This document shows, piece after piece, positions 1-32,728 of a stretch of DNA of 64,000 bases. Position numbers and translations under genes: made by a program. The stretch spans positions 125,674,001-125,738,000 of the forward strand of contig OX597818.1 in assembly GCA_951406725.2 (NCBI GenBank). The letters are read 5' to 3'. This DNA is from Octopus vulgaris (lineage: Eukaryota). Numbering within the stretch: the first letter of the stretch is position 1; every line of letters starts with the position of its first letter. A model generated the notes under the pieces. That model was not told the origin of the DNA. It worked only from the letters and a program-made list of their open reading frames with translations, and searched no databases.

Positions 1-222
<222 letters not shown>

Positions 223-223
<1 letters not shown>

Positions 224-1465
224 TCGTGGTGAAATAATGAAGGCAATTCAACCTGGCAATACTTGAGGCAGATGGAATCAAACACCACATCATAAAGGAA
301 AAGGCAAAAGGAGAGTACTTGCGGCAAATTAGAAAAATATTGTCTTCAAAGCTGAATGCTAGAAGCATTTCGGCAATAAACTCACGCACAGTCATAGTAG
401 TTCGCTATGGTGCTGGAATCCCGAAGTGGACAGAGGAGGAGCTAAAGGAGATGGATTGAAAGTCAAGAAAGCTCCTAACGATGCATGGAGCCCATCATCC
501 ACGTGCAGGCACTGATTGCCTATACATGAAAAGAGCAAATGGAGGAAGGGGACCGGTGAGTATGGAAGACTGCGTACGTATCGAACTCGAGAGCTTAATG
601 AGATGCCTAGCCCAAAGTAAGGAAACCTTGTTAGTGACAGATTAGAACGAGGGACTATTGAGAGCAGAGTGAAAAGGGAAAACAAAGGAAGAAGGGCAAA
701 AAGGATATGATGAAGAATTACGCAGGGGACTACACAATCAATTATATGTAGCTACTATAGAAGTTGCTGGAAAAAATAGGTAGGATTCGCTGATGAAAGG
801 AACTCTAAAAAAGAGACCGAGAGTACTATAGCGGTAGGTCAAAACCACGATCTGGTCACGAACTGGAGGGTCAAACCGCTGTGCTGTATCTGCAATAGAG
901 TGGATGAAACCATTGACCATATCACGATCGAATGCTCTAGACTTGCCCAAAACCACTACAAGTGGTGACGACACAATCAGGTAGCGAAAGTGAAAAGTGG
1001 GGGCTAGAGAGAGGCAAGACTTGATATGGACACAAACTGTACAGTGTAGTGGAACTGGAGACTAGCAAAATCTTCTGGAATTTCCCAATTCCAACAGATC
1101 AGGTGCTAGAGCAGAACAGACCGGACCTAGGGGTGGTGGACAAGATGTACCACATATTCTATATAGTTGAAGTTGCATGTCCCTTCGTTCCCCGAATAGT
1201 CCAGAAGGAAGGCGAAACGTTAGATAGATACAACCCTCTTAACCCGGCTGTGGAAAAGGAAGAAGGTGCAGATAATGCCAATTATTGTTGGATCCTTGGG
1301 AACAGTATCAGAAGGCATCAAGAGGAATATAAATGAAATTGGAATAGAGTGCCCAGTAGAACTGTTACAAAAGGTTTGCCTGCTTGGCACGGCCAGAATA
1401 ATCAGGAAAGTATTAGATACCTGGAAAGAACGAATAGCCTGGTCCCGTAGGCTGTAGGTAGCAAG
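223..1465 (+). mobile_element. Decayed, 5'-truncated non-LTR retrotransposon with restriction-like endonuclease (R4/Dong-like)
   Basis: Frameshifted remnants read RKILSSKLN, RYGAG, LTMHGAHHPRA, GGRG, a CCHC knuckle remnant near 880-980, then IFWNFPIPTDQVLEQNRPDLGVVDK..IVEVACPF and IMPIIVGSLG..LQKVCLLGTARIIRKVL. These match the RT C-terminus plus REL domain. The flanking (TAA)n fits the known Dong target. Confidence 0.85.
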
Positions 1466-4193
1466 CATGTATGTATGTATGTATGTATGTATGTATGTAT
1501 GTGCGTGTGTGTATGCGATGCTCCAGCATGACCGCAACTTCATGGCTAAAACAAGTAAAAGAGTACATATACTATATGTGTGTTTGGAAAGATTTTACTT
1601 TCTTTGTCACTTGCGTATTGATTTTTTTCAATGGTACTTAATTAGCTGATAAACATAATTAACTAACAATAAAAGGCTACAAATGCAACAGGAAACTCAA
1701 ATTTACTTACTAAGATACGAAGCAGCTATGAATGACTAAAAGCATAAAGGCCACTGCATGAAATCTGTAGCTTACAATCCAGACAAAATCGATCACAGTG
1801 ATGCAATTTTTTGAGATCTTTATGATTTTAATTAGCCAAACATAGTCAGAGTAATAAGTTGGGTATTAAAATATATTAAATAAAAAATATAACCTGAAGA
1901 GGAATTTACGTTCTCCATGTTTAGACTCTTGAAGAATGTTTCGATGCTTAGGAATAGAAATAGCTGTTTATTGATTAATGCCAGAAATTGCGTACATCTA
2001 ATAACTCACTTGATTTATCACATAGGAAGATGACATATAAGTCAGCTATAATATGTGTTACAATTGGCTGAGAATGCCGACACTTTACGGTTTCAATGCA
2101 TTATCTCTGCGCTGGCATTAAAACACATACTGCTTTTACTGTGTGGTGCATAACAGAAATTCCAGTAAAGTTTAAAGGAGAATAATTCTCAAAAACGAAG
2201 AAAGTACTGATAATTGTATATATGTAGAATTGGAATTACAAAGCGCGCACACACACACACACACTTGATTACACTTGGTTTTGTAATCAGGCAAGTAGGC
2301 TCTCGATCATGAGTTTGAAGTGTGACAGAGCACTCGGTCGGATCAAATTCACTTAACAGAATCAAAAAGTATGACCCCGAATCTTCATTTAACTATTTTG
2401 TGCTCGCTTTCAGTAAAGGTTCCAGGCAACTCAAAATAAATCATAGATTTAGGAATATTATGTACGGTAGAGAGAAGCCCACTGTCTTCCCATCGTCTCT
2501 CTCTCCCTTCCTCTCTCTTTCTCTTTCTCTTTCTCCTTCTCGTCACACGAAGTCGAGTAAGTGTAAGTGAAACAGAGGTATTTTCCTTACAGATCGACCT
2601 ACTACTGCTTGTTTAACTGAATTTTTGAAGGTATTCTGCTGTTAGGGACACTGGGAAGCTCGTTATTTATACGGGTCCTGAACCAAATCATTAGCCCTTT
2701 AAAGATACCTGTAATAATTCACTTATTTACATTATACATATAATTGTATCATATTAGCCTCTCACATTTTGTTACGTCTATGTAAGAGAAATAGCAGTGG
2801 TCATGCCTTTTTTGCTAGGCATTACTGAATGCAGACCGAATGCATGCAACAAAGTGAAAAGCCAACCAAGTGATATTCGTCGGTCGTTGGATTAAGTTTC
2901 CTCCTTAGAAAATACAGTTCATCCGACGGCTTCTACACAGTTTCTGTCTATGGAATTTCGAAAGGTTTGGATGCATCTGAGGCACAGGAGAAGTGTGATT
3001 AGAAAGCAAACTTACTAGACATACATACATATATACAGATATATAAACTTATGTACATATACACATGTGCATGTATGTATGAATGTGCGAATGTATGTTT
3101 ACAAGCCGAGAGATAAAATAAATGTTTAAGCCTTATATACAATGTATATCGTTTACCTAAAATACGAGTTTATAATCGAACATAAATTTATATGGGGCTT
3201 TGCCTGCGTTGTGAACTTAAGTAGAAGGGAGGCAGTAAATGTTTAATTGCCAACAACTGTAACTTAAAGCCATACAGTTTATGATATCAGTGTTGATTTA
3301 ATCTACTGCAATGTTTGACATGTACTTATTTTATCAGGAACAAAATCAAAGTAGATCCCAATCGGATTTGAACTTAAGAGAACTCAGAGACGAAACTTAT
3401 AGATTGCAAGATACTTTGAATACATACACATAGATGTAATAATTTGAAATGCAAGTTAATGAAAGAATCAGAGCTTATCATTGGAAATTAAATAACGAAA
3501 ACAATTTCAGGTATCAAGAGAAATATTTTTTTAAACCATTAGTATGTATGGATCAATACGGATTTTAACGACAGATGAAAAACTAACTAGGTATGTGACA
3601 AAACAAAAAATAAACAAAGATTATGTTCAGTCAAATTGCTCTGTTTATAGACTCATGATTTGTATAAATTTGAACATATTTTAAAAGAAGTCTGTATCAC
3701 GAAGGATAATTATAGAATTAAAACATTTAAAAATACTTTTAAGTGTTCCAGTCATGTGCTTTGCTGAAATTATGTTGGGATCAGTTGTGGAATAAGCCTT
3801 GAGTGTATACAACCAAACGATGAACAAACACGGACAAGGAGACAAGAAGACGAGCTTCAAGCTGTCTCGCCCTCGTCAGCGTCTGCTTAAGTGACTAGCA
3901 CCGAGAACAGGGTTGATGAGTTAAGTAAATGTTATCCATTAGCTAAGTAGAAAATGTTACTTAACCCACAGACTGTTAAGCTAATTTGTGCAGTGGTCCA
4001 GGCTTAGCAACTATAAACAATTCTCGTTAAGTCAGACACTGTATGAAAAGTAATGGATTCAATTTTGACATAAAAATATATTTCGGTATATGGATCATAT
4101 TTTTGAAAAGTGTTCATGCTATGTATGATATAAAGAGAATATGTAACAGAACACCTTATGTAATGCATGCATTTCTACAACCCCTGCTTACAG

Positions 4194-4307
4194 ATTTAAA
4201 CGACAGGTAGCTGATATGCGAGTGGCTGAGTATCGGGCACTGATGGCATTGTCCAGAAAAATTACCTGCACCCAGGTAGCGTGTGGGTTAGTTGATATTG
4301 ATAAGAG
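4194..4307 (+). CDS. Neuropeptide precursor, peptide exon A: (x)FKR-QVADMRVAEYRALMALSRKITCTQVACGLVDIDK(S/R)
   Basis: Acceptor cccctgcttacag, donor AG|gtatag. 114 nt, phase 2/2, open frame. Dibasic KR followed by Gln. Clearly paralogous to exon B (D..AEY.A...LS, C..VACG.VDI). Confidence 0.85.
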
Positions 4308-4554
4308 GTATAGTAAGCTCTAGTTCAACCCCCAAACACTATCCTTTTACCTAGTCAAGACCTAAACCAAAGCCCTTTCTCACTTACCCGCCTCAAATCC
4401 TTAAGTAAATGGTCAATGCATTACATTGTTAATATTTTTTTTCGTGTTTTGTGTTATACCAATAATTAATAACGTAGCAATGATAGATTCAATTTTTACA
4501 GTTCAAATTTTTGTACCATTTCATTCATAAATATTGCACACACACACACACACA

Positions 4555-4591
<37 letters not shown>

Positions 4592-5275
4592 ACACACACA
4601 GACACACAGACACACACACACACACACACAGAAACACACACACGCTTATATATGTATATTATACATAGTACTCTACCTTCATACTGTGTGGGCTGAGGTT
4701 CACACTTCATAAGCCGCTAATATGGCTTGGTTAAACTTCTGATTTAGGTAGCTAAATAATTTATCACTCTTGTGTCGTAGTTAACACGGCTATACACATT
4801 ACAGCAGACTCGGAGTTCAATTTCCATAGATCATTTAATGCATATAAATAGTATATGCATATACACAGATATTAATGTACAAGTATATATATATGGCCAT
4901 TTTACGCACACATACACGCATATGCACGTGTATATAGTAATATTTAAGTAAATATTTCGACCATTTGTTAAAGGAATATCGTGCTACCCTACCAACCACC
5001 TCCATTTCCAGTAAAACTCCATTGCCTCTTCTATAGTTATCTTTATCCAATGATACCCGTTCCTCACATTTCACATAGTTGGTCACATTATAATTGTTAT
5101 GTTATTACAAAAAGCAGTATTGATTTTATTTTGTTGTCATTACCTTTTACGTTGATATGTGCAATTTTCCTTCGCATTCCTTCTCGTATTTATAACGTTT
5201 GTTTCTTATCGACCTGTCAAATTGTTCTGTCATTATTGTTGATGTCCATTTGTGTGTTGTTTTACCTATTTACAG

Positions 5276-5395
5276 ATCGAAGCGCCAGACAGGCGATGTT
5301 AAAATAGCTGAATACCAAGCATGGTTAGGACTTAGTGGCACTGTACCACCGGGTTGTGTCGAGGTTGCCTGTGGGGTAGTCGATATAAACGCCAG
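5276..5395 (+). CDS. Neuropeptide precursor, peptide exon B: (x)SKR-QTGDVKIAEYQAWLGLSGTVPPGCVEVACGVVDINA(S)
   Basis: Acceptor ttttacctatttacag, donor AG|gtacag. 120 nt, phase 2/2. Lies inside ORF 5199-5447. Paralogous to exon A. Confidence 0.87.
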
Positions 5396-5586
5396 GTACA
5401 GTAAAATACAAAAAAACAGTAAAAGCCAAAATCCTGCTAAGCCATGAAAAATCCATTTTCAGGAATAGAAAAGACGCAAAGTTTTATGTTCTATCCTCCA
5501 GTAACATTGCTCTCCCTTCTCAATTTGTTGATTGATAAATGTTGTTTGCGTGTTTGTACATATGTATATAGGCATGTATTTATGTA

Positions 5587-5649
<63 letters not shown>

Positions 5650-5867
5650 TATATATGTATGTAGGTATGTATGAAGGTATGTATTACAATCCACCCAACT
5701 GAAAATGGAGGCCCCTGCTACAAACCAGGGTTCCATTTAAGAGTAATATAGGTCTTCCCGTATAAGCACTGTGGTGGCATCATTCGGGAGCTAACACAAT
5801 GAGAAAGCGCACTGTGATCAACGGTGTACAACAACATTTGATAGTCTGGTCTATCTATACTGTGCTG

Positions 5868-5914
<47 letters not shown>

Positions 5915-5922
<8 letters not shown>

Positions 5923-6146
5923 AATATTAGGGAATAAATCCAAATTTACAGGGAAAAAATCAGATTTAGGATTAAATCCAATTTTATAGTAAAATATTAT
6001 ATAATATTATTAGAGACAAAACCACCATTTTGCAAAACATACAAGGAAAGACTTAATCAATACATAAAATTTTAATGAAAAGTAAAAAAAACCGCCACTA
6101 CAATTGTTTCATTGTTTGTTTTGCAAAATAGTGGTTTTGTCTCTAA

Positions 6147-6147
<1 letters not shown>
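5915..6147. mobile_element. Fold-back fragment (probably Penelope-like terminus) between (TA)n tracts
   Basis: Internal inverted repeat attagagacaaaaccaccattttgcaaaac / gttttgcaaaatagtggttttgtctctaat. The same family occurs in reverse at 59545-60185. Confidence 0.5.
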
Positions 6148-6194
<47 letters not shown>

Positions 6195-6196
<2 letters not shown>

Positions 6197-6395
6197 CCTC
6201 GTGTGTACCGTTGGCGATTTTTTTTTCCTCTGTCTTCCCTTCTCTGGATCTTTCCTTCTCCTATGTTTCCGAGGAAGAGCTCCGCTCGAAACGTTAAACC
6301 CCCCTTCTTCCCTTCATTCCTGAGCGTCCAATAATACCTATATTTGTTCCACATCCTCGCGTTGTTGTGTTTTTTTTGTGTTTTCTTGTTTGGAT

Positions 6396-6400
<5 letters not shown>
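6195..6400 (+). mobile_element. Penelope-like pseudo-LTR fragment carrying a hammerhead motif, inserted in (TA)n
   Basis: (TA)n on both sides; contains the hammerhead motif at 6265-6299. Confidence 0.6.
6265..6299 (+). ncRNA. Minimal type I hammerhead ribozyme-like motif (U4C variant)
   Basis: GUUU-CCGAGGA-A-GAGC(UCC)GCUC-GAAA-CG-UU-AAAC. Stem I GUUU/AAAC, stem II GAGC/GCUC, palindromic ACGU in place of stem III. Confidence 0.6.
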
Positions 6401-6467
<67 letters not shown>

Positions 6468-6869
6468 CGTATGTATGTATGTATGTATATGTATATGTTG
6501 TTGTAATGAGAATTTTATGAACATTCAAGAGAGCGTGGAATAACACTCTTTTTGGAATCTCGGAGTACATATAAAGCTATAGATAATATTCGGTTGAAAA
6601 ACACTTTTGAAAATGATTCTATGTATTAGTCTGTGTATGACACCATGTGTATATGTGTATGTGTCCATAAAAGTTTTTAAATGCTTGCCGGTGTAAAACC
6701 TGGCATTGTGATATGTGTTGCGTCCCTCATTGTCATTCCATAACACGTGGAAAAGTGGTGCTCGGTATAAGGATTACTTGACTAAAAGAGTACTGCGACA
6801 GAGGAACGAAAATATTTGGTGGTTGTGGACACTTGTGGTCTAGTGTAGCCTCGTGTGACCTAGTGTGTG

Positions 6870-6902
<33 letters not shown>

Positions 6903-7027
6903 CATGCACTCACGTACACACACGCATGCACTCACACACACATACACACACACGCATATATATACAAATATACATAGTGCATCTATATATATGAATATAT
7001 ATATATATTTATATAAATATATATATA

Positions 7028-7486
<459 letters not shown>

Positions 7487-8377
7487 TAGATATATATATA
7501 TATATATATGAATATGGATATAGTTTACTGTTCTGTTACAAATCAACAAACAGATATTCCATCCGGTGTGAAATATAAATATCTTTTAATATACATGGTA
7601 TTAAAATAAGAACTATTTATAGTTTCTTGACATGAAGACACGTTGTTAGATAGGTTTTTATAACGTACCTTGTGTCTCCAAACTACCCTTTATGCTCTGA
7701 GTCCGTGGCTTGTTATATTTTTCAAATAGAACAAAACCATGAGCTCAGAGCCTGAAAACTCCTATTAGCTCATATTGTAGTACAGTGTACATCAAATGAT
7801 ATGTGTGTATGTGTTTATATATGTTTGTATGTGTGTGTGTGCGTGTATTTGTATGTATGCTTGAGTGTGTGTATGCATATCTGTACGTAGCTATATGTTG
7901 CTATATCTAAAGTTTGTACTGCCTTCTATTGTTCAGCTGCTATTTATATTTATCATTATCGTTTTTGTTGTAATCAATATATCATTTTCTTTACTCTTAT
8001 TTCAATCACTTATATTTTCAATTTTGCTATTACTTACAATCCGTCTTATCTTTGTTCTTCTTTCTGCTTGTTATTGTTGCTGTTTAAATGTTCTGTTGCT
8101 GTTGGGGGTCCCTCTTTTTTTTTCGTTTCCGTTTCAGTTCTTTTCTCGTTTGTTGTTCTCAATATTGTCGTGTTCTTTGTGTCTTATTTTCATATATTTT
8201 TTCTACTTATATCGACATTCCCTTTCCTATGTCACGTTTCTTCAACGTAACAGAAAACGTCATTGAATAGAAGGGTGGGCAGAGTATCTGTGTGTGTGTG
8301 TGCATTTGAAAATATTATCAGCTCATAATTACCAATCTATCTACCTATACACATATACATATATATACATACATATG

Positions 8378-8491
<114 letters not shown>

Positions 8492-8610
8492 TATAGTTCT
8501 ATAAATATATATATATATATATGTCTATAGTTTTATATATATATATAAAATTTTCGGTATGTGGTTAAGCAACTTGTTGCAAATAACCCTTATTGTTATA
8601 ATTATATATA

Positions 8611-8649
<39 letters not shown>

Positions 8650-8912
8650 TGTCATATGCACATACTTATAGACAGACAGGGGCACGGACACACACATAAA
8701 CACACAAACACACAGTTGTGTAGCTTAGTTTTGCATCTGATTTATCATTAACTGAGTATTATTACTGTAATTATAGATAATGTTGCAGTTACTGTAGGTA
8801 TTAAAAACATATTTACACCCTTATATTTATTTTTATTATATTTCCCTTGTACACGCATGATCTTGTCCTTTGTAATCTACTTAAATAGGGTAGTATATAT
8901 ATATATATATAT

Positions 8913-9790
8913 ATTCATAAATGAGGGTGAAAAATTAGATATTAATTTAATAATACCATCAGTTTAACACCAAGTGGCCTAGCACATAAAAAAACCAGGG
9001 AGACAGTACAAATTTATACGTAAATATAAGAGAGTTAACGTTAAGTGGTTAACTCTAGTGCTAGAAATAGCTCCTTATTCTGGTATAGCCACCGAAATTG
9101 TTTCCACAAAAGAAATAACATTACCTTCAACGTAAGGAAAGCGAAATACAACGAAAAGATAGATTAATGCTGAACAATTGTTTCTTTATCAACATAATAT
9201 GCAATTATACTCACATATTTGTCTATAAGTCATCGGCAGCATTTGTCCTCGATTCAATTTATCAGACCCTCACGGGCGATAAATACCCGTGCGGTCTGAT
9301 CGATTGCATACATAGTTGTGGTTTAGCTTCCCCGCCAAAAAGCATGCTAAGACTTAGTGGAAACTGATACTGCATATAATATTTGCTGCAGCATATTAAA
9401 TTTATAAATTCATAAATGAGGGTGAAAAATTAGAAATTAATTTAATAATACCATCAGTTTAACACCAAGTGGCCTAGCACATACAAAACCAGGGAGACAG
9501 TACAAATTTATACGTAAATATAAGAGAGTTAACGTTAAGTGGTTAACTCTAGTGCTAGAAATAGCTCCTTATTCTGGTATAGCCACCGAAGTTGTTTCCA
9601 CAAAAGAAATAACATTTTATGTGCTAGGCCACTTGGTGTTAAACTGATGGTATTATTAAATTAATTTCTAATTTTTCACCCTCATTTATGAATTTATAAA
9701 TTTAATATGCTGCAGCAAATATTATATGCAGTATCAGTTTCCACTAAGTCTTAGCATGCTTTTTGGCGGGAAAGCTAAACCACAACTATG
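8913..9790. mobile_element. Partial-tandem plus inverted element (Penelope-like architecture)
   Basis: 8913-9122 is repeated directly at about 9408-9616, and 9617-9790 is the reverse complement of about 9310-9487. (TA)n on the left, (CATA)n on the right. Confidence 0.6.
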
Positions 9791-10857
9791 TCTGTCTACA
9801 TACATACGTATGTAGACATACATACATACATACGTATGTAGACATACATACATACATATATACATACATACATGTATGTATTATGTATAATGAAAGTTAA
9901 AACAAAGTTTGTTTATAAAATATTTAATTACATTATCTTATGCGTAGGTGATTTACCATGAAAAATATCAGCCATTAAAAAGTAGACCTTATTAAGTCGT
10001 TTGCTTTGTGCTGTTAAATCTCCTGAAGTTGAGTTAATCTCATTAGAGTCCTTCTGTATTCTCACTCTGCACTTCCGACACTGTTATGGTATGGGCTATC
10101 ACAATCACAACTACAACGATATATTGAATGTGTGTGTGGATGTGTGGATGTGTGTGTGAGTGTGTATGTATATACATATACATATGCTTACCCATTTACA
10201 TGCATGGACTTGAAGTGTATGTTTGGGTCATTTTTGTTTATTTGTCTGTGTGGACAGGGAGCGCTTTACATGCTTATAGTGATGTATATAATACGAACTG
10301 GTTCCTGTTTACTATATTGCTGCTTCTAGCCACTCCGAAATGACATTTCCCAAATGCTTTCTGTTTCTTCTCTTTGTTTAAATCTCATCTAATTAACTCG
10401 TATATTCAATTTCTGTAACCTAATCATATTCCTATCATTGTATTGTTTTCTACATCACACAGCAGAATATAGATGTTGCGTCGAACAAACAAACGAATGA
10501 ACGAACTACTGCAATAAGATCCACACTGAGATACCACTAATATACTGTACTTAAATATGAGCCAGATATTATATTGTTTTATTGCCCTACTTCTCTATAT
10601 TTTCTTCTGTTAGGTGAAAGAAGAATCATTAACATGAAAACCAAATTCGATTATAAAAATTGTGGTAAAATGATGACACCAAAACCATTGTTTTTGAAAA
10701 TATTCATTCTTCTGTATTGTTGTATAATATGCCTGTCAAAATATAATGATTTGATTTATTGCAATTGTTTATAACATGTTAATATCATACTTTCAATTAT
10801 TTCAGCATAAATTTATATGGTATATTGGTTTGTGTGAGGGGATAGTATTTGTGCATA

Positions 10858-10939
<82 letters not shown>

Positions 10940-10946
10940 TGAGTGA

Positions 10947-10977
<31 letters not shown>

Positions 10978-10983
<6 letters not shown>

Positions 10984-11825
10984 TGAGTAAATTGTCGCCA
11001 CTATATAGTTTTAAGTTCGAGCATTCGCATAGTTCGTTTTTAATTTTATCGACTACACAGTATAGTAGGATCAGTTGGGCACCGTCTGTGGGAAAAACAG
11101 CACTATGACGCAATTCACTCTCCCTGAAATTTGGAAACGACATGCTGTACTGTTTGACATTCGTGCCAGAAGCTCCAATAGGAACATTTCAGAGTGTTTG
11201 TGTGTCAATCTGAGGACATGTACTGAGAGCGATAAAAATCAAACATCTAGTCAACATCATGGTGTTTGGAGTGATCGCTAGTGACGGCGAGCTTACGCCT
11301 CCATTCATCATCCCACGGGGCCTCAGACTCAACACGAAAGGCCTACATTAAGTGCCTGGAGGAGCTAGTGCTGCCCTGGGTGAAGCGGGTGACATCTAGG
11401 AGACCATATGTCTGGCAACACGATACTACACCATACCATATAGGTAGGACAATTTCTGCGACCCCATCACCCCAAACATCTGGCCACATAACTTCCGAGA
11501 CTACAACCGTCTTAATTATTACGTGTGGGGTGCATTTGACCGAGAGTCCAACAAAACTCCTTGTAACACCAAAGATGAACTAAAGGGAAGGATCATGGCA
11601 GCATTCACCGACTTAAAAAAGGTGATCGTCCAGGAGAGTTGCAGGAGATTCCGAAGTTGTCTGGGGGCCATGGTTGAAGCTAATGGCGATTTTGTTAAAT
11701 AATCTATTCTTTAGTATGTCAAGAAAGTCTATGTAATTTTGGTCAATATATCTATTAAAATGAGATGTCAGTGTTACTTTCATTTTTTCGTAATTTAGAC
11801 GACAATTTATTCACTGCACACTGTA
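10978..11825 (+). mobile_element. Decayed Tc1/mariner-superfamily transposon (maT/DD37D-like)
   Basis: Remnants YIKCLEELVLPWVKRVTSRRPYVWQHDTTPYH, a degenerate WP..S.D.N.L.YYVW box, and NKTPCNTKDELKGRIMAAF. Terminal inverted similarity taaattgtcg / cgacaattta; TA flanks. Confidence 0.8.
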
Positions 11826-12062
11826 TATATATGTGTGTGTGTTTGTGTGGGTATGTATATATTTATATGCGTGTTCCTGTGTGTGAGCGTGTATGGATGT
11901 AAATGTGTGCATATGTGTGTGTGTGTATACATATATAATATGTAATAATACAAATTACATATGTATTGTTATATAGATTTAATATTAAATATATTGTATA
12001 TATGTATGTATATACACATGCGTGTGTATCTGTGATTGCGTGTATGTGTGTGCGTGTGCGTT

Positions 12063-12131
<69 letters not shown>

Positions 12132-12210
12132 GTGAGTCTGTTTCTACGAGGTTCGTCAGTGTGTATTTCTTTGGAGTCTTTCTTAAATGAAATTTCTGAT
12201 TTTACTTCAG

Positions 12211-12309
12211 CGGTAAACGGACATCCTCCGACCAGAGGATAGCCGAATTAAGAGCTCTTAAGGCCATGAGCAAAGTGGCTGGTCATGGCCAATATGACTT
12301 TGCTGAAAT
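12211..12309 (+). CDS. Neuropeptide precursor, peptide exon C: (x)GKR-TSSDQRIAELRALKAMSKVAGHGQYDFAE(I), iPTH/PXXXamide-like
   Basis: Acceptor ttctgattttacttcag, donor AT|gtaggt. 99 nt, phase 2/2. The SDQRIAEL..L and GHG..D...I-amide motifs resemble the arthropod iPTH consensus as recalled. Confidence 0.85.
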
Positions 12310-12359
12310 GTAGGTATTCGAAATTATCTCTGTCATCAGCGCTACACTCATAGTCGTAC

Positions 12360-13248
12360 TGTCCGTCAAGAAATCACACAGTGTTCGTCTGTTGTCACAC
12401 TGTGCCGTGCTGTGTGTTATACGTCACGGTATGACTGTTTAATTCGTTAGGGTGTGTTGTTTTTTACTATACGTTTGTTACAGTTATATTCTTCGTCAAA
12501 CACCGTGGATCATTACGTCACACCAAGATTGTTCTTTTGTACGTTATGTTCTATCATTTTTCATACGTATTAACGTGCTGTTCCTGATTCTACGTCACCT
12601 CATCTCGTATATTTTACGTCATACTGTATTGTTATTACGTATATTTTTCATCAAACGCTGTTTGCTACATTATGCCGATGGTAATTCTCTGCGTTACGTT
12701 CATTTGTTCTTTCTTCGTCACACTGCCGATCACTGTTCTATTGCAAATCAAATTATTTCTATAACGTCCCGCCGTGCTGTACATTATGTTTCTTCCACGT
12801 TCCGTCATGTTCATCATTGCACCTTCGTCACGATATGATGATCACCTATTTTCCGTTGCATTGATATTGGATCAATTCTTTTCTCTCACGTCACGTTTGA
12901 TGTCCCCGTCTGTATTCTACGTTACAATGTACACTGATCTATGTTGCGTCTTATCCTCACTCTATTACATTGATCTTTTGCACGATTTCACTTATGTTAC
13001 TAAGTTACACTGTCTTATTCATCCTTCGTCATATCATACCTTTCATTTTTCTCTACACTTTAGAATACTATATCCTACTTCATGTTGTCTATGTAGATAT
13101 ATTTCTACGACGTTATGTTAATGTGTTTATTCTAAGTACTGTCTCGCTGTCACAATTTCGTTTCGCCGTGTGCCGTTTCCAAGTATTTCACAGTCCTTTT
13201 CTATGTTACGTCAAAAAATTGTATCATAACATCATGTACACACACACA

Positions 13249-13318
<70 letters not shown>

Positions 13319-14100
13319 CATTTGTATATATGATGCAGCTTCACTGCGTCACACCTAACTGTTCACTATGCCACAACGTGGATCTTCTTTGTGTGATGTA
13401 AACTTGTTTTGTTCGGAGTATGAACTGACTGTTAATTAGTTCCATATATTTTTGATTTTCTGTTATTTTCCGGATTGTATTCAGTGCGTCACTTGTGACT
13501 TTTCTTTAAGTATCTTATTTATTCCACGTCGTCTAGTGATGTTTTTCATTCGTCAAGTCTCATATTTTATTTTTTTATCATGTCAATTTATATTACGTCA
13601 TGTCCAAATGTTCCTTTCATGGTATGTAATTCTCTTTAATTCTTTACTCTATGCATTTTGAAAATTTGATATTTCATTTCTGTTCTAAATAATCTTATTC
13701 ATTCTACGACAAGCCGTACTGTTTCTTTACATGCTCCTCCCCTTTTTTTTTCAATATCTTTTATTGTTTCACTGCGTCAAAGTTTGATTACATCGTGTTT
13801 ACCTCACATTTGTTCACCAAGACAAAGGCATGTTTCTTCACATGTGACACATGGATTTATCCTTTTTTTGTTACTTTTAGAGCACCCTGTAAACGTACAC
13901 CCTATCAGCATAGCATGGCTATGTATTCTATATCATACCGTGATGCTATGTACATCTTGTCAAAACGGATTTAGCTTATCTCTAAATTACGCTATATTCA
14001 CACGTTCTAAAGAGTGCCTTATGTGCTACATTCGCCACTCTTCCAATATTTCACCTTGCAGATGTTTACAATTAACGCACCCAACTCTAACGTCACAGTG
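12360..14100 (+). repeat. Highly decayed CGTCA-containing minisatellite-like tract
   Basis: Recurrent same-strand (T/A)CGTCA(C/T) and ACGTTA words in a pyrimidine-rich context, interrupted by (TA)n near 13250-13315. Confidence 0.55.
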
Positions 14101-14340
14101 CTTCAATCTATGTGTACATACATGAATGCATACATAGATAGATACATACATACATACATATATACGTACATACATATATATGTATAAATTAATACACGCG
14201 TGCATACGTAATTCATACAGACATACTTAGATGCATACATATGTAAAGACATATATATATACATGCATAAATTCATACCTACAAACGCACATGCATATGT
14301 ACAAACATGCGTACGTACTTACAGCTTCAACGTGTATATA

Positions 14341-15460
14341 CAGTTGCGGCCAAAATGTTCAGAACGGCATTGTTTTTGTCAGAAAAGTAGATATAATTTT
14401 TAATAAAACTTGTGTTATTTTCTATAATTTTCACAGACAATAAATACGATATTAATTGTTATTGTCTGAGATTTTGGTGTAATTTGAGAGGATAATACAA
14501 AAGTTATGGATGATTTAGTGATTTACTGCCAAACCCATGGCGGCCAAGATGATCAGAACGGTTGCTTTTACTTCATGTTTTACTATATTTAACCGGTGAA
14601 CTCTAATGCTTTGAATTTGTTTACCCGACGGTTTATTTACTAAACATTAGTAAGAGTATCTGCAGTGTACTTTGTTAATATAATGCCACTTACTCCGTTA
14701 CCAATTCGTCAGCAGATTATTAAGCTTCGAAAGAAGGATAATTTAAGTATTGGGTCTATTGCAAAGATTGTTAACAAGTGAAAAAGTGTTGTTCACGGTA
14801 TTCTTAAGGTCTACGATGATTGTGGTTCGTGTGAAGCAAGAAAGTCTACAGGTAGGCCATGAAAAACGACCAACAGAGAAGATCGTGCTATGGTAAAGTT
14901 GGTTAAAAAGGACAGATTTAAAACTGCTGCTGCTGTTTCTCGGGAAATGTGCATTGTACTGAAGAAAACTTTATTTCGAAAAACTGTGTGTTGTCGTTTA
15001 GTTGAACATGACCTACAAGCAAGAGCACCTGCAGTGAAGTCACTAATCAGCTCCAAGAATAAAAAATGTCGTCTTACCTTTGCAACCGAACATATGTTGT
15101 GGTTTCAAGAAAAATGGCAAACGGTGCATTTCCGGGATGAATCTAAATTTGTTATTTGGGTCAGATGGGAAAAGGTACGTTTGTCAAAAAGTAGGTGAAA
15201 AATTGTCGCCTAAATGCCTTAAGACTAGTGTTAAATTCGGTGGAGGAAGTGTCATGGTTTGGGGGATGATATCTGGAGATGGTGTGGGCCCTTTGGTGCG
15301 ATTACATGGAAAGGTAAATGCAGGAGTTTATAAACAACTTGTAAAAGATCATGTCTTGCCTGTGCTGAGAAATTCAACTAAGCGATCACCCATATTCATG
15401 CAGGACAATGCCCCATGTCACAAGGCTAAGGTGGTCATGAACTTTCTCAAGGCTGAAAAG
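14341..15460 (+). mobile_element. Tc1-like transposon, 3'-truncated, with pseudogenised transposase
   Basis: TA|CAGTTGCGGCCAAAATG terminus, echoed internally near 14540. HTH region from 14683 with in-frame stops, then DESKF, SVKFGGGSVMVWGMISGDGVGPL and FMQDNAPCHKAK. Confidence 0.9.
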
Positions 15461-15723
15461 ATTATTGTTAATATAGCCACTGAAAAGTGGCTATATTTTT
15501 AAATCGAATTAATTTTAAATCGAATTTATTTTAATAGCATCGATTTTATCATTATCGATTTAAAGATATAGTCCCCAAATGCGCGGAGTCAGTTTAATGT
15601 TTCTTTAATTTATTGATTTTTAAAAATATATATTATAGCATATTTAATTTTTTCTATATATGGATAATGTCTTTCACAATTGAATTGCTTTATAGAAGAT
15701 ATTTCTCTTAATAATATATGTGC

Positions 15724-15770
<47 letters not shown>

Positions 15771-15944
15771 CACAAGAATACACAAACATTCGCAAACGTG
15801 TTCTCAAATCTAACAATTCCCATGCAAACATACACTCACAGAAGCACGAATGCATATTACAAAATACGTCAGATGACACACACACACACTACGGAGATGT
15901 AACTGCATTGCAAGTAACTTGATCTGAGATCGTGTGCTGAAGCA

Positions 15945-16170
15945 AAAACAATTGCAACGAGGAAGATGCTTGTCGGCCATTTAAGGCCAAAAAAAAAACG
16001 TCAGTTTCACTTCAACATTTAAATTAAATTTGTGTCAAAATATTTTCATCGCTTTGAAACCGCGACCTGTTCATTGACAACATTTTGTGTATTTAAATGT
16101 TGAAGTGAAACTAACGGGTTTTGTGTGTTCTTAAATGGCTTACAAACATCTCCACGATGCAATTGTTTAT
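15945..16170 (-). mobile_element. Fold-back Penelope-like fragment with a hammerhead-like motif in the loop
   Basis: 15945-16025 and 16090-16168 are imperfect inverted arms. The minus strand of 16033-16079 reads UGUCA-AUGAACAG-GUCGC..GCGAU-GAAA-AUAU-UU-UGACA. Confidence 0.55.
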
Positions 16171-16222
16171 ATAACTGATATATTTATTCTATACACATTA
16201 ACACAAATTCGGTAAACATATA

Positions 16223-16315
<93 letters not shown>

Positions 16316-16338
16316 ATAGATACACACATATGTGCCTG

Positions 16339-16386
<48 letters not shown>

Positions 16387-17179
16387 CAAATTAGTTACCA
16401 CTCTATCTCAAGAAGCTAAAAGTCAAATGAGCTAAGCAGGACATAATAGACCTAGCTGCTAACCCATGGCAACCCACATCAGTTAGAAGCCTCTATTCCT
16501 GCCATTTTCTAACTAGTTCTTTATATTTCAAGCTCTTCCTTTCATGTAACCGGTCCCATGCTTTCGATGAACAGAAAATCTAAGTGGAGTTTTCTTATGG
16601 ATCATTTATACTCGATTTCAATCACTAATATTCAGCTGCTATATAAAGCAGTTATAAATTAGGCTATAGCTTTGGTGGATTGCTTAGCTTATATAATTGT
16701 GCTTTTGACGAGTCGTCTTTAACAGATATATTATGCATAAAACAGTGTGAGTCAGAAACACTGAAATAAATATAAATATTAGAAGACCTGAATTTAAGAG
16801 AAATATTTAGCATGTAGACACATTTTTCTCTACCTGTGATGCGCAGAAAACAAAAGAGAAGTGTCATGCCTGACCGTTTCACGGTTTGTTAAGCGCTCAT
16901 ACATACATACATGCATTCATACATACATATATAAATACATACATACATGCATACATACATACACACATAATTACAAAAATACATACATACAACAGTCTTT
17001 GAATTGAAGTTCGCACTTATATATAACACATACAGAGACATGTGCGCATAAAACACACATACACGTACATGATGACTTTGTGCACTTGGTCGATCTCGTG
17101 ATTAATATTGAATTATTTTCTATATCCTTATCTCTTTCTATACAAAAGCTCTTGGCAGTATCGGTACAATCGCCACAGG

Positions 17180-17180
17180 A

Positions 17181-17231
<51 letters not shown>

Positions 17232-17330
17232 TAGTAGTAGTAGTAGTTGTAGTAGTAGTAGCTGTGGTGGAGGTGCCGTCGGTGGTGGTGGTGGTGGTAG
17301 TGTAGGTGGTGGTATTGGTGGTAGTTGTGG
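17180..17330. repeat. (TAG)n/(GGT)n microsatellite
   Basis: Direct inspection. Confidence 0.95.
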
Positions 17331-19933
17331 CTGAGTAAATTATGTCACTTAATCCGATTGGTTTGTTGGGAAACCCTTTAAAGTTTTCTATCTTAACTAA
17401 ATATACATTGCAAGACAGAGTAACTAATATCCGGATAGTAGAGAAGATGTATGAAATCAGCATTGAGATAAACGGCTTGTCAATTTTCCCGGAAACGATT
17501 GAAATACACGTGATCGAAAACAGTTACTCGAGAGAAGAAAAAACACATTGATCGAAGTACAACAATTAATCGAATTATAAATAAATATTCGAAGTACAGA
17601 AAATTGCTTAAAGGAAAATAGATTTTATTTTTTATTGCTATACAATATATAATCTCAAGTTATGAATGATTGCGAAGATATGAGTGTATGTGTGTGTACC
17701 TGTCGTGTTTATATTTAACAGTCTTGAACACTAGTTTCTAAATTGTTGAACATAAGCATAACAAGCTCAGACACATATAAGAAATTATTTTATATTCTAT
17801 TGTAATTTTTATAGTAAATTAGATATGAGATATTAATATAATTATATATACATATACACACACACAGACACACACACACACATATATATATATATATGCA
17901 TATAATGTTAATATAACATATATAGATTATATACTAATATATCATATTATATATCATATTATTTTATAGTCGTATTTTATATTTTGCGAGTTAGCAGGAC
18001 CCTGTTTCTATAATTGGTATTACAGCCGATCATTTTCTATCAATTGCTTTCTTAGTGAGACAGTCAATGTTAGCTCAATCACCCATAAGAGTGTTATAGT
18101 TCCCTCAGCTATACTCGTGTAGATTTAGTTTAACTCAATATTGAAAGGTAGCCGAAATCTCTTCAATTTAATAGAATTTCTCGCTATTCTCTGTGGTAAC
18201 TCATTGAACAACAATGAATACTTGCCAGCAATTTTCATGAAATGTTGATCATGATTTTCAATATGGCACGAAACAAGAAATATATTGTTTCAATAATGTA
18301 ATTTTTTTCATGCACATCTGACCTGACATATTGCGATTTCAACAAGTTATATATAAAATACAAAATATAATATATGCTACTTAAATCTCCACCATGAGCT
18401 GTAATTTTTGAACGAGCTCTGAAAATAAATTGCGAAGCACTGTCTCAAAAAACCTTACAATAAGGAAATAAAATCAGAAATAGTAGCCAAATCCCCCTTA
18501 AATGAAAGCGTTCTAACATATTAGATAATACTGTCCTAGACATATTGTATCTAGAAAATTTCATATGCTGGAGCACGTCTTATCATCGGATAAGATCTAT
18601 TCGATCAGGGTTGACATTAAGTTCAATAGCTGCAGCAGTTGTCATTCACGTAACCAGTCGTCATTCACGTGCGAGTAAGACTTGGTAACGTAATTCATGC
18701 GTATGCTCGTCGATTTCGGTGCCTAGGTTGTCATGAGCAGTCAGGGAAGTCCTTTAAGGAATCCTCTCATTCTTAACCTGGTGGAATAACCGGGATGTGA
18801 CAGCTGGAGTAAAAGAGAGGATTGCACTAGCACGCAACAGGTACTCGTAATATGTTGTCTGATTCAGGAATTCAAGTCAGAAATTATGATCATAAGTTAA
18901 TACCTCATCCAAAAAATGAAAATGAACTTAAATTATAGCAAATTCTACAGATAGTCGAAAATTGGCAAGTTGCGCTGGCAATGTAGGTTCTATTTCATGT
19001 AATACTTTTACATTTCGTTTAAAACTAAACAGTTATCAAATCGGCCTAATAAAAGCCTTTGAAAAACGGAAATAGAGCATCCGTCGATCGCTGCTACTGC
19101 TTTGATATGTTGATGTAAGCAGACTTACTATGAATGATGCGAAGGACAAGTAAATCTATTAGTGCTCCATTTTTACACAGTACAATGATATTCTATTGCA
19201 TCAGGAGAATTGAGGGAGAATTGGTCTAATGTCGTACCTAGTGTCTTGATATTAAAATACCAATAATATATTGAGAGTAGCCACCATCCTCAATCCACAG
19301 TTGAAGGGAATATATAACACTTGTCCAACAGTTTTGCCTGGCTTTAGAATTCAGCATAAACCTAGATGAGTAGCCTAGATAGATTGCTACCATTTGTCCA
19401 AGATGTTATCTCGAGTCTCCTGGGGAAAGGGGCAACTTAATATCCCTTTTACAGGTTGGCTTCTATAACTTAAGGCAAAGGCCTTTCACAAATAACAAGA
19501 AAGTACAACATTCGTTGGCGATCCAGTGAACTATAACGATTATAAAATTGAACAATATCGAGTGTTTTTTTTTATAGATAATAATCACTTATTAATGTCC
19601 ATAATTCATGATACTGTTTCGATCTCGTTTGTAAGCTATAAACATAATCTTAGTTCCGTAGTTATAAATTGGTAATAAATTTGTAATCTTAGCTTAAACA
19701 ATTAATTATATTTAAGAAAAGAGATGCTGCACTGTTATATTTTTGAGGTAAGTACACACACACACACACTCACACACAAACTCACAAACACACATCTTTC
19801 CAACAGCGTTTGATTTGAAAAGTTAAAATTAATTACTGGCGAGATCTTTCCACTTAATTTGATAAAATTTTAGTAACCAGACATTTTTTCCCTACACTGG
19901 TTTCTTTACACTTAGTTTTACTTACGATTTTAG

Positions 19934-20039
19934 CGGCAAGAAAAAACGTAGTGACATATCAAGTGACGACATCAGACGTTCAACTCTGGCTCAAAGACTG
20001 ATCCGATTTGCAGCAGAGAGACTTGCAAAGACTGAGTAA
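19934..20039 (+). CDS. Neuropeptide precursor, last coding exon: (x)GKKKRSDISSDDIRRSTLAQRLIRFAAERLAKTE*
   Basis: Acceptor ttttacttacgattttag. The first base C completes AG|C (Ser) for exons A/B or AT|C (Ile) for exon C, followed by the Gly-KKKR amidation/convertase signal. Stop TAA at 20037-20039. Donor-like G|gtgagg after 20051. Confidence 0.85.
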
Positions 20040-20186
20040 TCTAAAGAAATGGTGAGGTATTTGATTTCTTTCTTTCTCTGTCTGTCTCTCTCTCTCTTTC
20101 TCTCACTCTCGCTCTCTGAAATTTCTTTATTTATTTCACTGTTTTAAAATGAAAGCTGTCCAGTTTTTATATTTACATATTTACAG

Positions 20187-20420
20187 TCACTTAGATTTAG
20201 AAACATTACAAAACTCATCCATGTTAGAACTTCGAGTTTTAGTCAATACATCGGACTTGGTGCAGCTGATTAACTGAATAGAATAGCTCCTTAGTATGTT
20301 AGATTAGTAGACTATAATTTGTAGATTAGTGAATTTGGATAAAGATAGATAAAAATTTAGGATCGATGGCAAGTTGAAGAATCGAAGCAGGTTGCAATAA
20401 ATCCTATGCAGGTTCTAAAT
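20187..20420 (+). other. Putative 3' UTR exon of the neuropeptide gene (3' end uncertain)
   Basis: Acceptor tttttatatttacatatttacag ends at 20186, after a donor at about 20052. AATAAA at 20396-20401; further AATAAA sites lie downstream, e.g. near 21401. Confidence 0.4.
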
Positions 20421-21834
20421 CATTAAAATACAGCGGTAACGATGATTATGGTAGCGACGACAACGACGACGACGACAATGATTAATATGTTGATTAAGAT
20501 GATGATGATGATGATGATGATGTAAATCACGTGAACTAAGGGAAGGAAACAGTATAAGACTACTGCTTTGGTAATCTAAGAAAAGTTTAAAAGTAAGGTT
20601 AACAACAACGGAAGCAGACTTTCACTGTTTCTCTTACGTTGTGTATTATTGCTGGAATGATGTTAGTATATTACAAAGAGGAAGCATCTAAGTAGTGGTT
20701 TTATCAACTACAGATGTCAACCAAATCTTCTTCGAACCACACTCCATCGTTTTATATAAGTGAGACTACATGAAATAATGTAGTCCTAGATAATCGTAGA
20801 AAAAGAGGGTCATAGTTGAAGTGTCTTTGATCATATGTCTGCTCAACAACAATTGATTTGAAGTTACACAAAATAGTCCATCTTAGAAAAGTGCCTGCAG
20901 CGTTTCTGGAAGTTTACAGAACTTACGATAATGAACAGGATGATAGAAAGAAATACGTCACACATTGCCCTGTGTAAAAACAGTAAGCTATGCAACTAAA
21001 GAGGATAGGAACACAGCGAGTTGGCTTCGATTCTAGGTTGTAGCCATTTCACTACATCTTTATCGATTAGGTCTTTGATAATGAACTCTCCATAAGCTCA
21101 ATGCCTTTCTCTTTAATGAAGAATTGTTTGAATTGACAGTATTCCATTGCTAGTACCTCTTCGACTCCATGAAGATGAAATACAAAGAAGAATCTATGTA
21201 GACTTGGACTTAATGCGTTGAGGAATGAGGAATATGCGAGGGAAGTTTATGACTGACTTCTTTGATTTCCAGTGTACAGGGAGTTCGAGGAAAGTTGACA
21301 GTTCACATACAAAGAAAATAAACATCATCGATAAAAATAATAGTATTTTAAAAAGATAATTTAAAATATGTTTTATTGATTGTAATTAAAAAATAGTAAC
21401 AATAAAAGATGCAACAACTGAAGAACAAATTATACGTATTCTTTTAATGAGCATTGCTTTTGTTCGTTTATTCATTTCTATTTATACTTTTTTGGCGCTC
21501 GTGCATTTAGATATACAACCAGAAGTATGTGCAACTCTTTTTTTAAAAATTAAGTATATTCACAAAAGTAGAATGCAAAACTTCGTATGTCATAGTAGGT
21601 CACAAACAGGTGATATAGCTAACAATTGAACAGCTATATGTATGTAACATTAGGTATACACTTCACATTTGCATATCACTATTTTGTGCTTTTAGCTGAA
21701 TTACTTGACACATGTCCTTAGTGGGTATTGATGAATAAATTCATAGATATTGAAGACCAATGTGCTAATGGATTTACTAAATTTTATTGTTTACTAAGTA
21801 TGTAATCCAATAGATGCAGGTGAAACTTAACGAG

Positions 21835-23445
21835 CAAAAATATTAGAAAATTTCAAAAAATTTTTGCAAAAATTTTCAAAAATTTTGGGGGAAAATTTTC
21901 AAAAACTTTGGGGAAAAATTTTCAAAGATTTTTGGTGAAAATTTACAAAAATTTTTGTAAACTTTCACCAAAAGTTTTGGGGAAAATTTTCAAATAATTT
22001 TGAGGTAAATTGTCTAAAATTTTGGATAAAAATTTTCAAAAAATTTTTCAAAAACAGATTACCGGAGATTCCCGGAAATTGCCGGATATGCCGGAATTTA
22101 CCGGGAATTGCCGTAGATTGCCGGAAATCAACGGAAGTTGCCGGAGATTGGTGGAATAGCATTTTGGGAGATTTCCCAATAATGCAGGGAAAAGTTTTCA
22201 AAAATTTTTGGGGAAACATTTCAAAAATATTTCGGAAAATTTTGAACAAATTATGGGGAAAATTTAAAAAAATTTTTGGGGAATATTTTCAAAAATTTTC
22301 GGGGAAAACTTTGAAAAATTCTTTGGAAAAATTTTGGGGGAAAAAGTTGAAAAGTTTTTGGGAAAAATTTTCAAAACGTTTCGGGGAAAATTTTCAAAAA
22401 TTTTTAGCGGTAGTTGCCGAAGATTACCGGAGATATACTGATCTTGCCAGAGATAGGCGGAGATTGCCGGAGATAGCCGGAGATAACCAAAGATTGGCGG
22501 AATAGCATTTTTGGAGACTTCCCAATAATGAAGGGAAGAATTAAAAAAAATTTTGGGGGAAAATTCTGAAAAATTTTGTAAAATTTTTGGGGAAAATTTT
22601 GAAAAATAAAAAAAAATTTGGGGAAAAATTTTGAAAAATTTTTGCGAAAATTTTGAGGAAATTTTTAACAATTTTTGGAAAAAATTTGAAAAATTTCAGG
22701 GGAAAATTTTCAAAATTTTTCGAGGAATATTTGTTTCAGTTTTAGGGAAAATTTTAAAAAATTTTTGAGGAAAATTTTAGAAAAGTTTTTAGGGAAAATT
22801 TTCAAAAATTTTTGCGGTAATTGCCGAAGATTACCGGAGATATACTGAGCTTGCCAGAGATAGCCGGAGATTGCCGGAGATAGCCGGAGATAACCGGAGA
22901 TTGGCGGTATAGCATTTTTGGAGACTTCCCAATAATGAAGGAAAGAATTTTCAAAAATTTTGGGGGAAAATTCTGAAAAATTTTGTAAAATTTTTGCGGC
23001 AAATTTTGTAAAATTGTTGGGGAAAATTTTGAAAAATTTTTCGGAAAAATTAAAAAAAATATTTGGGAAAAATTTAGAAAAATTTTGGGGGCAAATTTTG
23101 AAAAAATTTTTGCGAAAAATTTTCAAAAATCTTTGAGGAAAATTCTCAAAAATTGTTGCGGAAAATTTTTTGGGAAAGGTATCAAAAATTTTTGAGGAAA
23201 TTTTTAACAATTTTTGGGAAAAATTTGAAAAATTTTGGGGGAAAATTTTCAAAAATTTTTGAGGAAAATTTGTTTCATTTTTAGGGAAAATTTTCAAAAA
23301 TTTTTGAGGAAAATTTACAAAAATTTTTGCGGTAAATTAAAAAAAAAGTTTTGTGGAAAATTACGGGAGATTGCCGGAAATTGCCGGAGATTGCCGGAGA
23401 TTGCCGGAGATTGCAGGAGATAGCTGGAGATTGGCGGAATATCAA
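21835..23445. repeat. Composite satellite: phased AAAATTTT tracts with four blocks of 10-bp (TTGCCGGAGA)n and a recurring ~36-bp module
   Basis: 10-mer blocks at about 22058-22150, 22410-22500, 22818-22905 and 23360-23435. The module atagcattttgggaga(c/t)ttcccaataatg occurs at about 22156, 22502 and 22909. Confidence 0.9.
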
Positions 23446-23985
23446 TGACTGATGATAGAGTATGGACGGATTTTTGAAGTACCCTACACACATATTTGAT
23501 TATGAAGATTTACAAACATATTTTCTCAGTGAAACTCAATATACCCACCATTATAGATAATACCAAATGTACATTTTCGGATTTTTCATAATTTCATGTG
23601 ATATAATTCTTTGGTATAGCAATTGCATGCGGCTGAAGAGAGCTTTAAACTATCTGTTATGTCGATTACACATTGATGTAAGAATAGGTTATTTTATAAA
23701 GCTTGAAACACGTGTTCCGTGACATCCTTTGTGTTTTGTTTTTCATTTCATTTGATGCATATATGTATATACTAACAGTATAACCCGGATTTTCCCGCGA
23801 TTAAGTTAGGATTATTAAGCTAATCAAGTTCTTTATTTCAAACCAAACTAAGTAATATCGATGTCAAATTTTGGCGAAATCTGTTGAAATTGGTTTCTAT
23901 ATATATATATATATGGGCAGCACACACATACACGCACGTACGTAATACACCCATAGCATACATGTTTTTTGTATGCATACATGTT

Positions 23986-24029
<44 letters not shown>

Positions 24030-24378
24030 TGTGTGTGCGTGTGTGTGTTGCCCGTATATCAACAAAACAATTTTTTCTTCGATGGAAAAAAAACAACAAA
24101 AGTCAACAAAAACTTACTCGTCGCTAGAAGGGGACTTAACTCCTGTTTGTAAACAATGGTGATTTCTCCGACTTGAAAATTGTTAAAAGTTTTGGTTGAA
24201 AATTTATTTTTACTACTATTCGCTGGTGCCTCTGGTAAAAAAAATAATAAGTTGACGAAAATACAGCTAGGTTCATGACGAATGTCCTCCTAAAATTGGA
24301 GCGACATGCATCCTAATTTGTGGACGTGCAAAACGTTCACACACACACACACACACATCCTGCCTTTTATATATACAT

Positions 24379-24437
<59 letters not shown>

Positions 24438-24486
24438 AACACACGTGCGCGTGCACACACATAGTAGTTATCTTTTACCATATACT

Positions 24487-25519: not shown

Positions 25520-25745
25520 AACTTTCCAGAAGTTTATCATTTAAGTATATATAAGCATGTCTAGATATGCAACTATAAGCATGGAAATTCATACATAAAA
25601 CAAAATACTCAAATCTGCACCTATATATACATAAAAAATACCCTATTGATGTTGTTGAAATTCCAGTGAAGGAGCTTTGGATTTAGGTTAGAAACCGGCT
25701 CTTTCTCTATTGGTAAGAAATCTTGAAATAAAACTGAATAATAAT
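25520..25745 (+). mobile_element. 3' UTR fragment of an RLE non-LTR element
   Basis: Reverse-complement match to 43922-44150 (ggttagaaaccggctctttctctattgg.aagaaatcttgaaataaaactgaataat). Confidence 0.7.
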
Positions 25746-32727: not shown

Positions 32728-32728
32728 T

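Follow-up and report, generated by a model that had tools for sequence, protein, structure and literature searches.

Does the Cys ring encoded by two neighbouring exons of this octopus locus define a new kind of peptide, and what, if anything, sets the locus apart from its relatives? The original prediction described the two exons as variants of one PTH-like scaffold. In the window (the whole stretch of 64,000 nucleotides analysed here), their coordinates, splice signals and motif were all confirmed, and together with two further exons in the window and one upstream of it they form a single gene. A second locus with exons A, B and C, in inverted orientation and 1.18 Mb away, was also found; we will call it the twin.

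Gene layout and family identity

The features of the window gene are as follows:

C5:125670568-125670656, 3.4 kb before the window: signal-peptide exon, located in the sequence beyond the window
4194..4307, + strand: exon A, KR site and QSamide-type peptide A (from splice signals and frame)
4255..4260, + strand: internal Arg-Lys of peptide A (from the sequence)
4267..4284, + strand: C-x4-C of peptide A, predicted six-residue disulfide ring (from the codons; same in the twin)
5276..5395, + strand: exon B, KR site and QSamide-type peptide B (from splice signals and frame)
5355..5372, + strand: C-x4-C of peptide B (invariant in 29 aligned sequences)
12211..12309, + strand: exon C, Cys-free PXXXamide/iPTH-type peptide (from frame and match to homologues)
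19934..20039, + strand: coding part of exon D, Gly-Lys-Lys-Lys-Arg for amidation and cleavage, then the C-terminal propeptide (from homologue match)

Exons A and B each possess a TTACAG acceptor and a GT donor, with phase-2 introns on either side. As all introns of the gene are of phase 2, any exon can be skipped with the frame kept, and all seven splice forms tested were in frame. Phase-2 acceptors followed by a dibasic site occur 15 times in the window, and four of these (A, B, C and D) fit homologues; exon D matches the C-terminus of models P0002 (O. bimaculoides) and P0003. Peptide A would comprise 35 residues and peptide B 37 when their exons are joined to D or C, and the exon C peptide 30, amidated when joined to D. 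Exons A and B have no amidation signal of their own. The final Ser-Gly-Lys-Lys/Arg arises only at the junction of A or B with D or, in the window copy only, with C, while joining of A to B yields peptide A without amidation. Exon C begins with a Gly codon in the window copy (12212-12214), where the twin and O. bimaculoides have Val; a junction of A or B with C could therefore lead to amidation of the upstream peptide in the window copy alone.

The public model of the window gene, P0001, includes neither the signal exon nor exon D. Its first (3544-3594) and last (13882-13971) exons look spurious, since they provide no signal peptide and no amidation exon and since spliced contigs (see below) use the signal exon and D instead. 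Both public gene models need correction. Genome-wide searches with exons A, B and C revealed no third copy or fourth peptide exon among the best-scoring candidates, and tblastn of 38 homologues on the stretches analysed gave no further copy or peptide exon either.

Both ring-bearing exons encode KR-Q, as anticipated from their Gln start, followed by x2-D-x3-AEY and C-x4-C-G-x-V-D, with Cys codons at 4267 and 4282 in exon A and at 5355 and 5370 in exon B. In six-frame genome searches, exon A and exon B gave four matches each, corresponding to A and B of the two loci. Conservation of the Cys pair in orthologues, on which the original prediction depended, was borne out: the pattern C-x4-C-[GE]-x2-D occurred in 36 of the 38 retrieved homologous proteins, a set biased towards the motif because it was found with motif-bearing queries. 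One of the two remaining homologues had Asn for Asp, and the other possessed Cys-free peptides only. When exon B was aligned with 28 of the 38 (most of the ten left out were multi-peptide models), both Cys and the next Gly were invariant. A chance occurrence of the motif was thus rejected, given the restriction of genome matches to two loci and the invariance of the Cys pair.

With near certainty, the locus can be identified as the iPTH/PXXXamide-QSamide neuropeptide gene of the octopus. Exons A and B encode QSamide (QSGamide) peptides, i.e. the Cys-ring form of this lophotrochozoan family, and exon C encodes its Cys-free form. The QSamide precursor plan was present (signal peptide, KR, mature peptide with Gln start), and the C-terminal Ser-Gly-dibasic sequence that gives a Ser-amide is formed at the A-D and B-D junctions, by prediction in the window copy. 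In exon C, the SDQR-x-AEL N-terminal motif, HG-x2-D and the Gly-basic-basic amidation signal were all found. The HG-x2-D stretch is the alignment partner of the ring region of A and B, whose second Cys aligns with the H of HG. Pro at position -4 is absent from exon C (Phe in the window copy, Val in the twin and O. bimaculoides P0002), which makes its peptide iPTH-type and not literally a PXXXamide; this Pro is only mildly conserved, and a Pro-less O. bimaculoides form was kept in the family (PMC7224569).

The expected new cyclic subfamily turned out to have been published. Platynereis QSGa was named in 2013 (PMC3890597), scallop QSamide has mass spectrometric support (PMC5996578), and the oyster peptides except QSamide2 were detected by mass spectrometry (PMC8398477); all seven QSamide precursors listed in the supplement of the latter paper contain C-x4-C. 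Thiel 2021 (PMC8557429) equates iPTH/PXXXamide with QSGamide, the oyster paper links the two, and the orthology of iPTH and QSGamide is backed by cluster analysis (PMC8557429, PMC7224569); in the accessible portion of PMC6425005, PXXXamide was not recovered. The Xie 2020 S1 table gives three O. bimaculoides transcripts corresponding to signal-A-D, signal-B-D and signal-C-D, alongside two transcripts of Sepia gene 1 and three of Lottia gene 2, although the Octopus entries bear no 'transcript found' mark and may be predictions (PMC7224569). As for the suggestion that the peptides are unannotated, this holds for database labels (hypothetical or uncharacterised) but not for the literature, where the family is named. 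The window model is labelled a hypothetical Octopus vulgaris protein in the genome search database; a Pfam search of P0001-P0003 found no family, and a PDB sequence search with O. bimaculoides P0002 found no match. The Cys-ring motif is real and already known, and as originally worded its finding adds little; the window gene is nevertheless a divergent new member of the family.

The layout of a signal exon, alternative peptide exons and a shared amidation exon has been published for oyster, cuttlefish and limpet (PMC8398477, PMC7224569). In oyster Cragi-QSamide3/PXXXamide, which follows the same alternative splicing plan, the QS exon likewise precedes the Cys-free exons and a shared last exon gives the Gly; octopus exon A starts like oyster QSamide3 and exon C like oyster PALIamide (PMC8398477). 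The oyster gene contains one QS and two PXXX exons, whereas the octopus gene contains two QS exons and one PXXX-type exon that has lost Pro -4. O. bimaculoides iPTH transcripts 1-3 use the same three exons with the same signal and last exons; exon A is the counterpart of transcript 1, and the exon B isoform is common to cuttlefish (Sepia gene 1) and O. bimaculoides (PMC7224569). Two O. sinensis models from NCBI, P0005 and P0009, contain exon A as well. Platynereis QSGa and scallop QSamide share the KR-Gln start, C-x4-C-G-x2-D and the Ser-Gly-dibasic end, but unlike in octopus each of the listed precursors holds a single peptide (PMC3890597, PMC5996578). More distantly, insect iPTH has the same scaffold and precursor plan as the octopus gene, while Daphnia iPTH, the arthropod example, is without a Cys ring (PMC8398477). 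The Tribolium peptide activates class B1 PTH-like receptors, iPTHR1 and iPTHR2 (PMC7224569); activation was shown for the insect peptide only, and pairing in lophotrochozoans was unproven as of 2021 (PMC8557429). Identity to vertebrate PTH is below 12% (PMC7224569), so that 'PTH-like' refers to the receptor.

By this precedent, the signal exon would be spliced to one or more of A, B and C and then to D, convertases would cut at KR, and the C-terminal Gly of exon D would be converted to an amide. The N-terminal Gln of peptides A and B may cyclise to pyroglutamate, and their two Cys would form a disulfide bond closing a six-residue ring near the C-terminus. The peptides would most likely act on a class B1 PTH-like receptor. 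Ligands of this receptor class bind the outer domain with their C-terminal part, and by analogy the ring could tune affinity.

It was also proposed that cleavage at the internal basic pair of peptide A releases a short cyclic peptide. The pair itself is present, as RK in the window copy and O. bimaculoides, but the twin and the two O. sinensis models (P0005 and P0009) have RN at this place, and exon B has no RK-like internal site. RK is moreover a convertase site that is seldom used. Release of such a ring peptide is therefore not favoured and remains weakly supported. Some other QSamide precursors (P0008, P0021 and P0035) carry Arg-Arg a few residues before the ring; an internal basic pair before the ring thus recurs among QSamide precursors, though not consistently.

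Splicing and the inverted twin locus

Four of the 24 listed sequencing runs, whose status as RNA is a guess, were compared with the gene over positions 4100-5560. Three of them (X2, X3 and X4, from three studies) yielded an exon B contig flanked by letters of the signal exon and exon D; in X2 and X4, the first 29-30 bases of exon D come after exon B. These spliced contigs differ from the window at seven positions, exactly as the twin does, and their signal exon is of the twin form. Expression of the ring-bearing exons was thus found for the orthologous exon B, which is spliced into mRNA as signal-B-D in the twin copy. The fourth run, X1, gave unspliced contigs with twin letters at four of four exon A sites and at the five listed exon B sites. 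In the four runs, over the same positions and with tissue not recorded, we detected no window-type transcript and no spliced exon A contig; stretches without coverage prove nothing in this respect. Among the listed runs, none on record as RNA contained the window sequence, which counts neither for nor against its expression. A protein search with the window-type exon C, a weak search, retrieved P0001 alone among four candidates. Two side observations concern run X3, which is labelled as another organism: its exon B contig begins exon D with a silent T in place of C, and one intron contig mixes letters of both copies.

The two loci lie within a large inverted duplication:

1..62621 of the window, no strand assigned: inverted segmental duplication, left arm (in part)

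The left arm extends over about G000:C5 125.636-126.109 Mb and the mirror arm over about 126.344-126.956 Mb, giving a duplication of about 0.5 Mb with a spacer of 235 kb. At sampled points, the mirror match held at 125.9 and 126.1 Mb and was absent at 125.5 Mb. The arms are collinear over a stretch that begins 37 kb ahead of the window and reaches 62.6 kb into it. Noncoding divergence amounts to 3.0% (1,453 of 48,066 sites) in the wider stretch, with 372 differences in 15,768 sites inside the gene, and the arms are further distinguished by many transposon indels. Copies of one repeat family occur at both outer arm ends.

We consider it likely that the two arms represent real paralogues. They could also be two haplotypes kept by the assembler, the window copy being a diverged allele that is possibly balanced or located in an inversion. 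Regions with such divergence and so many transposon indels are the kind that escape haplotig purging. O. sinensis has a second model situated on a 48-kb scaffold, and the arms share a 3.1-kb stretch with 99.9% identity. However, two alleles would not be expected to produce a path of arm, spacer and reversed arm. No assembly gap was found in the spacer or at the four arm ends, and no run of N in 76 loci that include 250 kb across the spacer and inner arm ends; within the arms, reading for gaps was at most by spot check over about 360 kb on the left and about 400 kb on the right. Furthermore, all four runs, coming from four studies, showed twin letters in the exons covered, even though runs had been ranked by window words. 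Taken together, this makes the haplotype explanation rather unlikely, yet the strongest of the competitors.

Two further observations favour a duplication. O. sinensis likewise has two models; that on the 48-kb scaffold carries window-type residues at two positions beyond the peptides, together with a twin-type exon A. In two large runs from a single study, 0.76 and 0.72 of the words of the window are present, where the twin explains only 0.44; these figures reflect word content only, and one of the runs could come from the source animal.

The near-identical stretch comprises window positions 1-1028 and about 2.1 kb upstream, with 2 of 2,563 sites differing between the arms. By eye, it contains a long TAA run and decayed retroelement-like coding sequence, and either recent gene conversion or an assembly effect could account for it.

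At its 5' end, the twin has a modelled exon (C5:126934939-126935022) that possesses a strong donor and is single-copy in the genome, and the corresponding part of the window arm is shorter and rearranged. The single-copy state of this exon, which is known from an automatic gene model only, points to a possible loss of the first exon from the window copy; the signal exon begins directly at an acceptor, so that an upstream exon is needed.

One-sided divergence of the mature peptides

Although the arms are similar overall, the two copies have diverged from their relatives to very different extents. Among 137 residues, the twin differs from O. bimaculoides at three and the window copy at 20. With O. 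bimaculoides P0002 as reference, 17 changes were specific to the window copy and none to the twin, with one site different in all three (p 1.5e-5); with O. sinensis P0005, the counts were 15 and zero. The single gene listed for O. bimaculoides matches the twin rather than the window copy (PMC7224569). Against Argonauta, the asymmetry was gone (9 versus 5), and at five sites the window copy matches Argonauta where the twin differs. These shared residues could mean older sequence and not new change.

The changes concentrate in the peptide exons. Between the copies, exon A showed four nonsynonymous and no synonymous changes and exon B seven and none, i.e. 11 versus 0 for both (Fisher p 0.039). 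Exon C showed 12.4 nonsynonymous and 2.6 synonymous changes, as against one and two in the complete codons of the signal exon and exon D. For A, B and C together, 23.4 nonsynonymous changes compare with 5.75 expected at the noncoding rate, while the test of dN against dS, a comparison covering this gene only, was not significant (p 0.07). In exon C, 15 of 99 bases differ from the twin, a density matched by none of 358 noncoding windows, whereas the raw base counts of A and B are no outliers (reached by 99 of 301 and 29 of 276 noncoding windows, respectively). Exon A alone is compatible with neutral drift (p 0.13). In the window copy, the reading frame is free of stops and frameshifts, and all Cys, KR and splice sites are retained.

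From the sequence comparison, the window copy is best read as a young duplicate on which positive selection has possibly, perhaps probably, acted. The combined explanation that we moderately favour is that of a gene of a known family, present as a real young paralogue whose window copy diverged adaptively. According to this explanation, the window copy would be the younger-looking of two copies generated by a recent inverted duplication. The twin would have retained the ancestral sequence, and it is the copy seen spliced. The window copy would have taken nearly all amino-acid changes in its mature peptides, most likely through positive selection after duplication and directed at altered receptor preference or a new release site. 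Whether the divergence was adaptive and the window copy works is, taken by itself, an evenly balanced matter, and its expression and function are putative.

According to a competing explanation, the window copy is a duplicate that is silent or in decay, deprived of its first exon or promoter, and its changes stem from relaxed constraint and local rate variation. The twin's upstream exon without a second genome copy, the acceptor at which the signal exon starts, the four runs without window-type transcript and the drift-like exon A all suit this idea, the first of these being known from an automatic gene model only. On the other hand, neutral change on one branch should leave about 3.7 nonsynonymous changes in A, B and C, compared with about 21 assigned (the assignment being approximate); A and B have accumulated no synonymous change, exon C exceeds every noncoding window, and nothing disabling has occurred. 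We regard a decaying duplicate as improbable.

Equally improbable, in our view, is that the duplication captured older sequence in the peptide exons of the window copy, C above all, whether from an ancient allele or from a converted tract. Three of the five residues common to Argonauta and the window copy lie in exon C, whose synonymous divergence (2.6 of 23 sites) would agree with greater age. However, the introns beside exon C diverge at an ordinary rate (seven substitutions in 400 bases downstream), a third C-like exon that could have acted as donor did not turn up in the searches, and the changes in common are conservative, involve one base each and fall on variable sites.

The preferred reading of an adaptively diverged paralogue also has a more specific form, in which a selected duplicate that lost its first exon acquired a new expression site and is secreted, in venom or reproductive fluid, with the PTH-like receptor of a different animal as its target. 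We hold this joint reading, including its mode of secretion, to be quite unlikely. The locus does combine a duplicate of an own gene with an accelerated mature peptide, the feature by which doppelganger venom peptides are recognised, with the reservation that A and B are unexceptional in their base counts. Recruitment of the window copy into venom or another secretion to mimic prey iPTH/QSamide is very unlikely: duplication, one-sided mature-peptide change and a conserved signal peptide form the pattern of such toxins (PMC13542836) and crustaceans and molluscs possess the peptide family (PMC8398477), but the four runs yielded no window-type transcript, the accessible text of a cephalopod salivary-gland survey with a QSG model among its queries reports no QSG mimic and only stanniocalcin, luqin, myosuppressin, tachykinin and neurotensin mimics (10.64898/2026.02.02.703354), and PTH, QSG and PXXX are absent from the main text of PMC13311285, PMC13542836 and 10.64898/2026.04.09.716377. 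No mimic of the iPTH/QSamide family was found in the literature searched.

Neither this duplicate nor its rate of change appeared in the literature searched, a scope that most subscription journals lie outside. If the duplicate is real, the octopus possesses a pair of nearly identical genes, and the roughly 20 residues that distinguish their three peptides changed almost exclusively on one branch. This would provide a clear-cut example of how neuropeptides diverge shortly after a gene is duplicated and a natural ligand set for mapping the roles of the ring and C-terminus at the receptor, in a family whose mollusc receptor pairing is still unproven in the literature examined. Should the copies be alleles instead, a balanced neuropeptide polymorphism would be of interest as well.

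Finally, two minor features were noticed in the introns of the window copy. In the intron between C and D, an open reading frame at 15047-15502 has a weak match to the DDE_3 endonuclease below the Pfam cut-off and is probably a decayed Tc1/mariner-type element. The intron between B and C contains, at about 8900-9800, direct and partly inverted repeats of a sequence some 200 bases long, as judged by eye.
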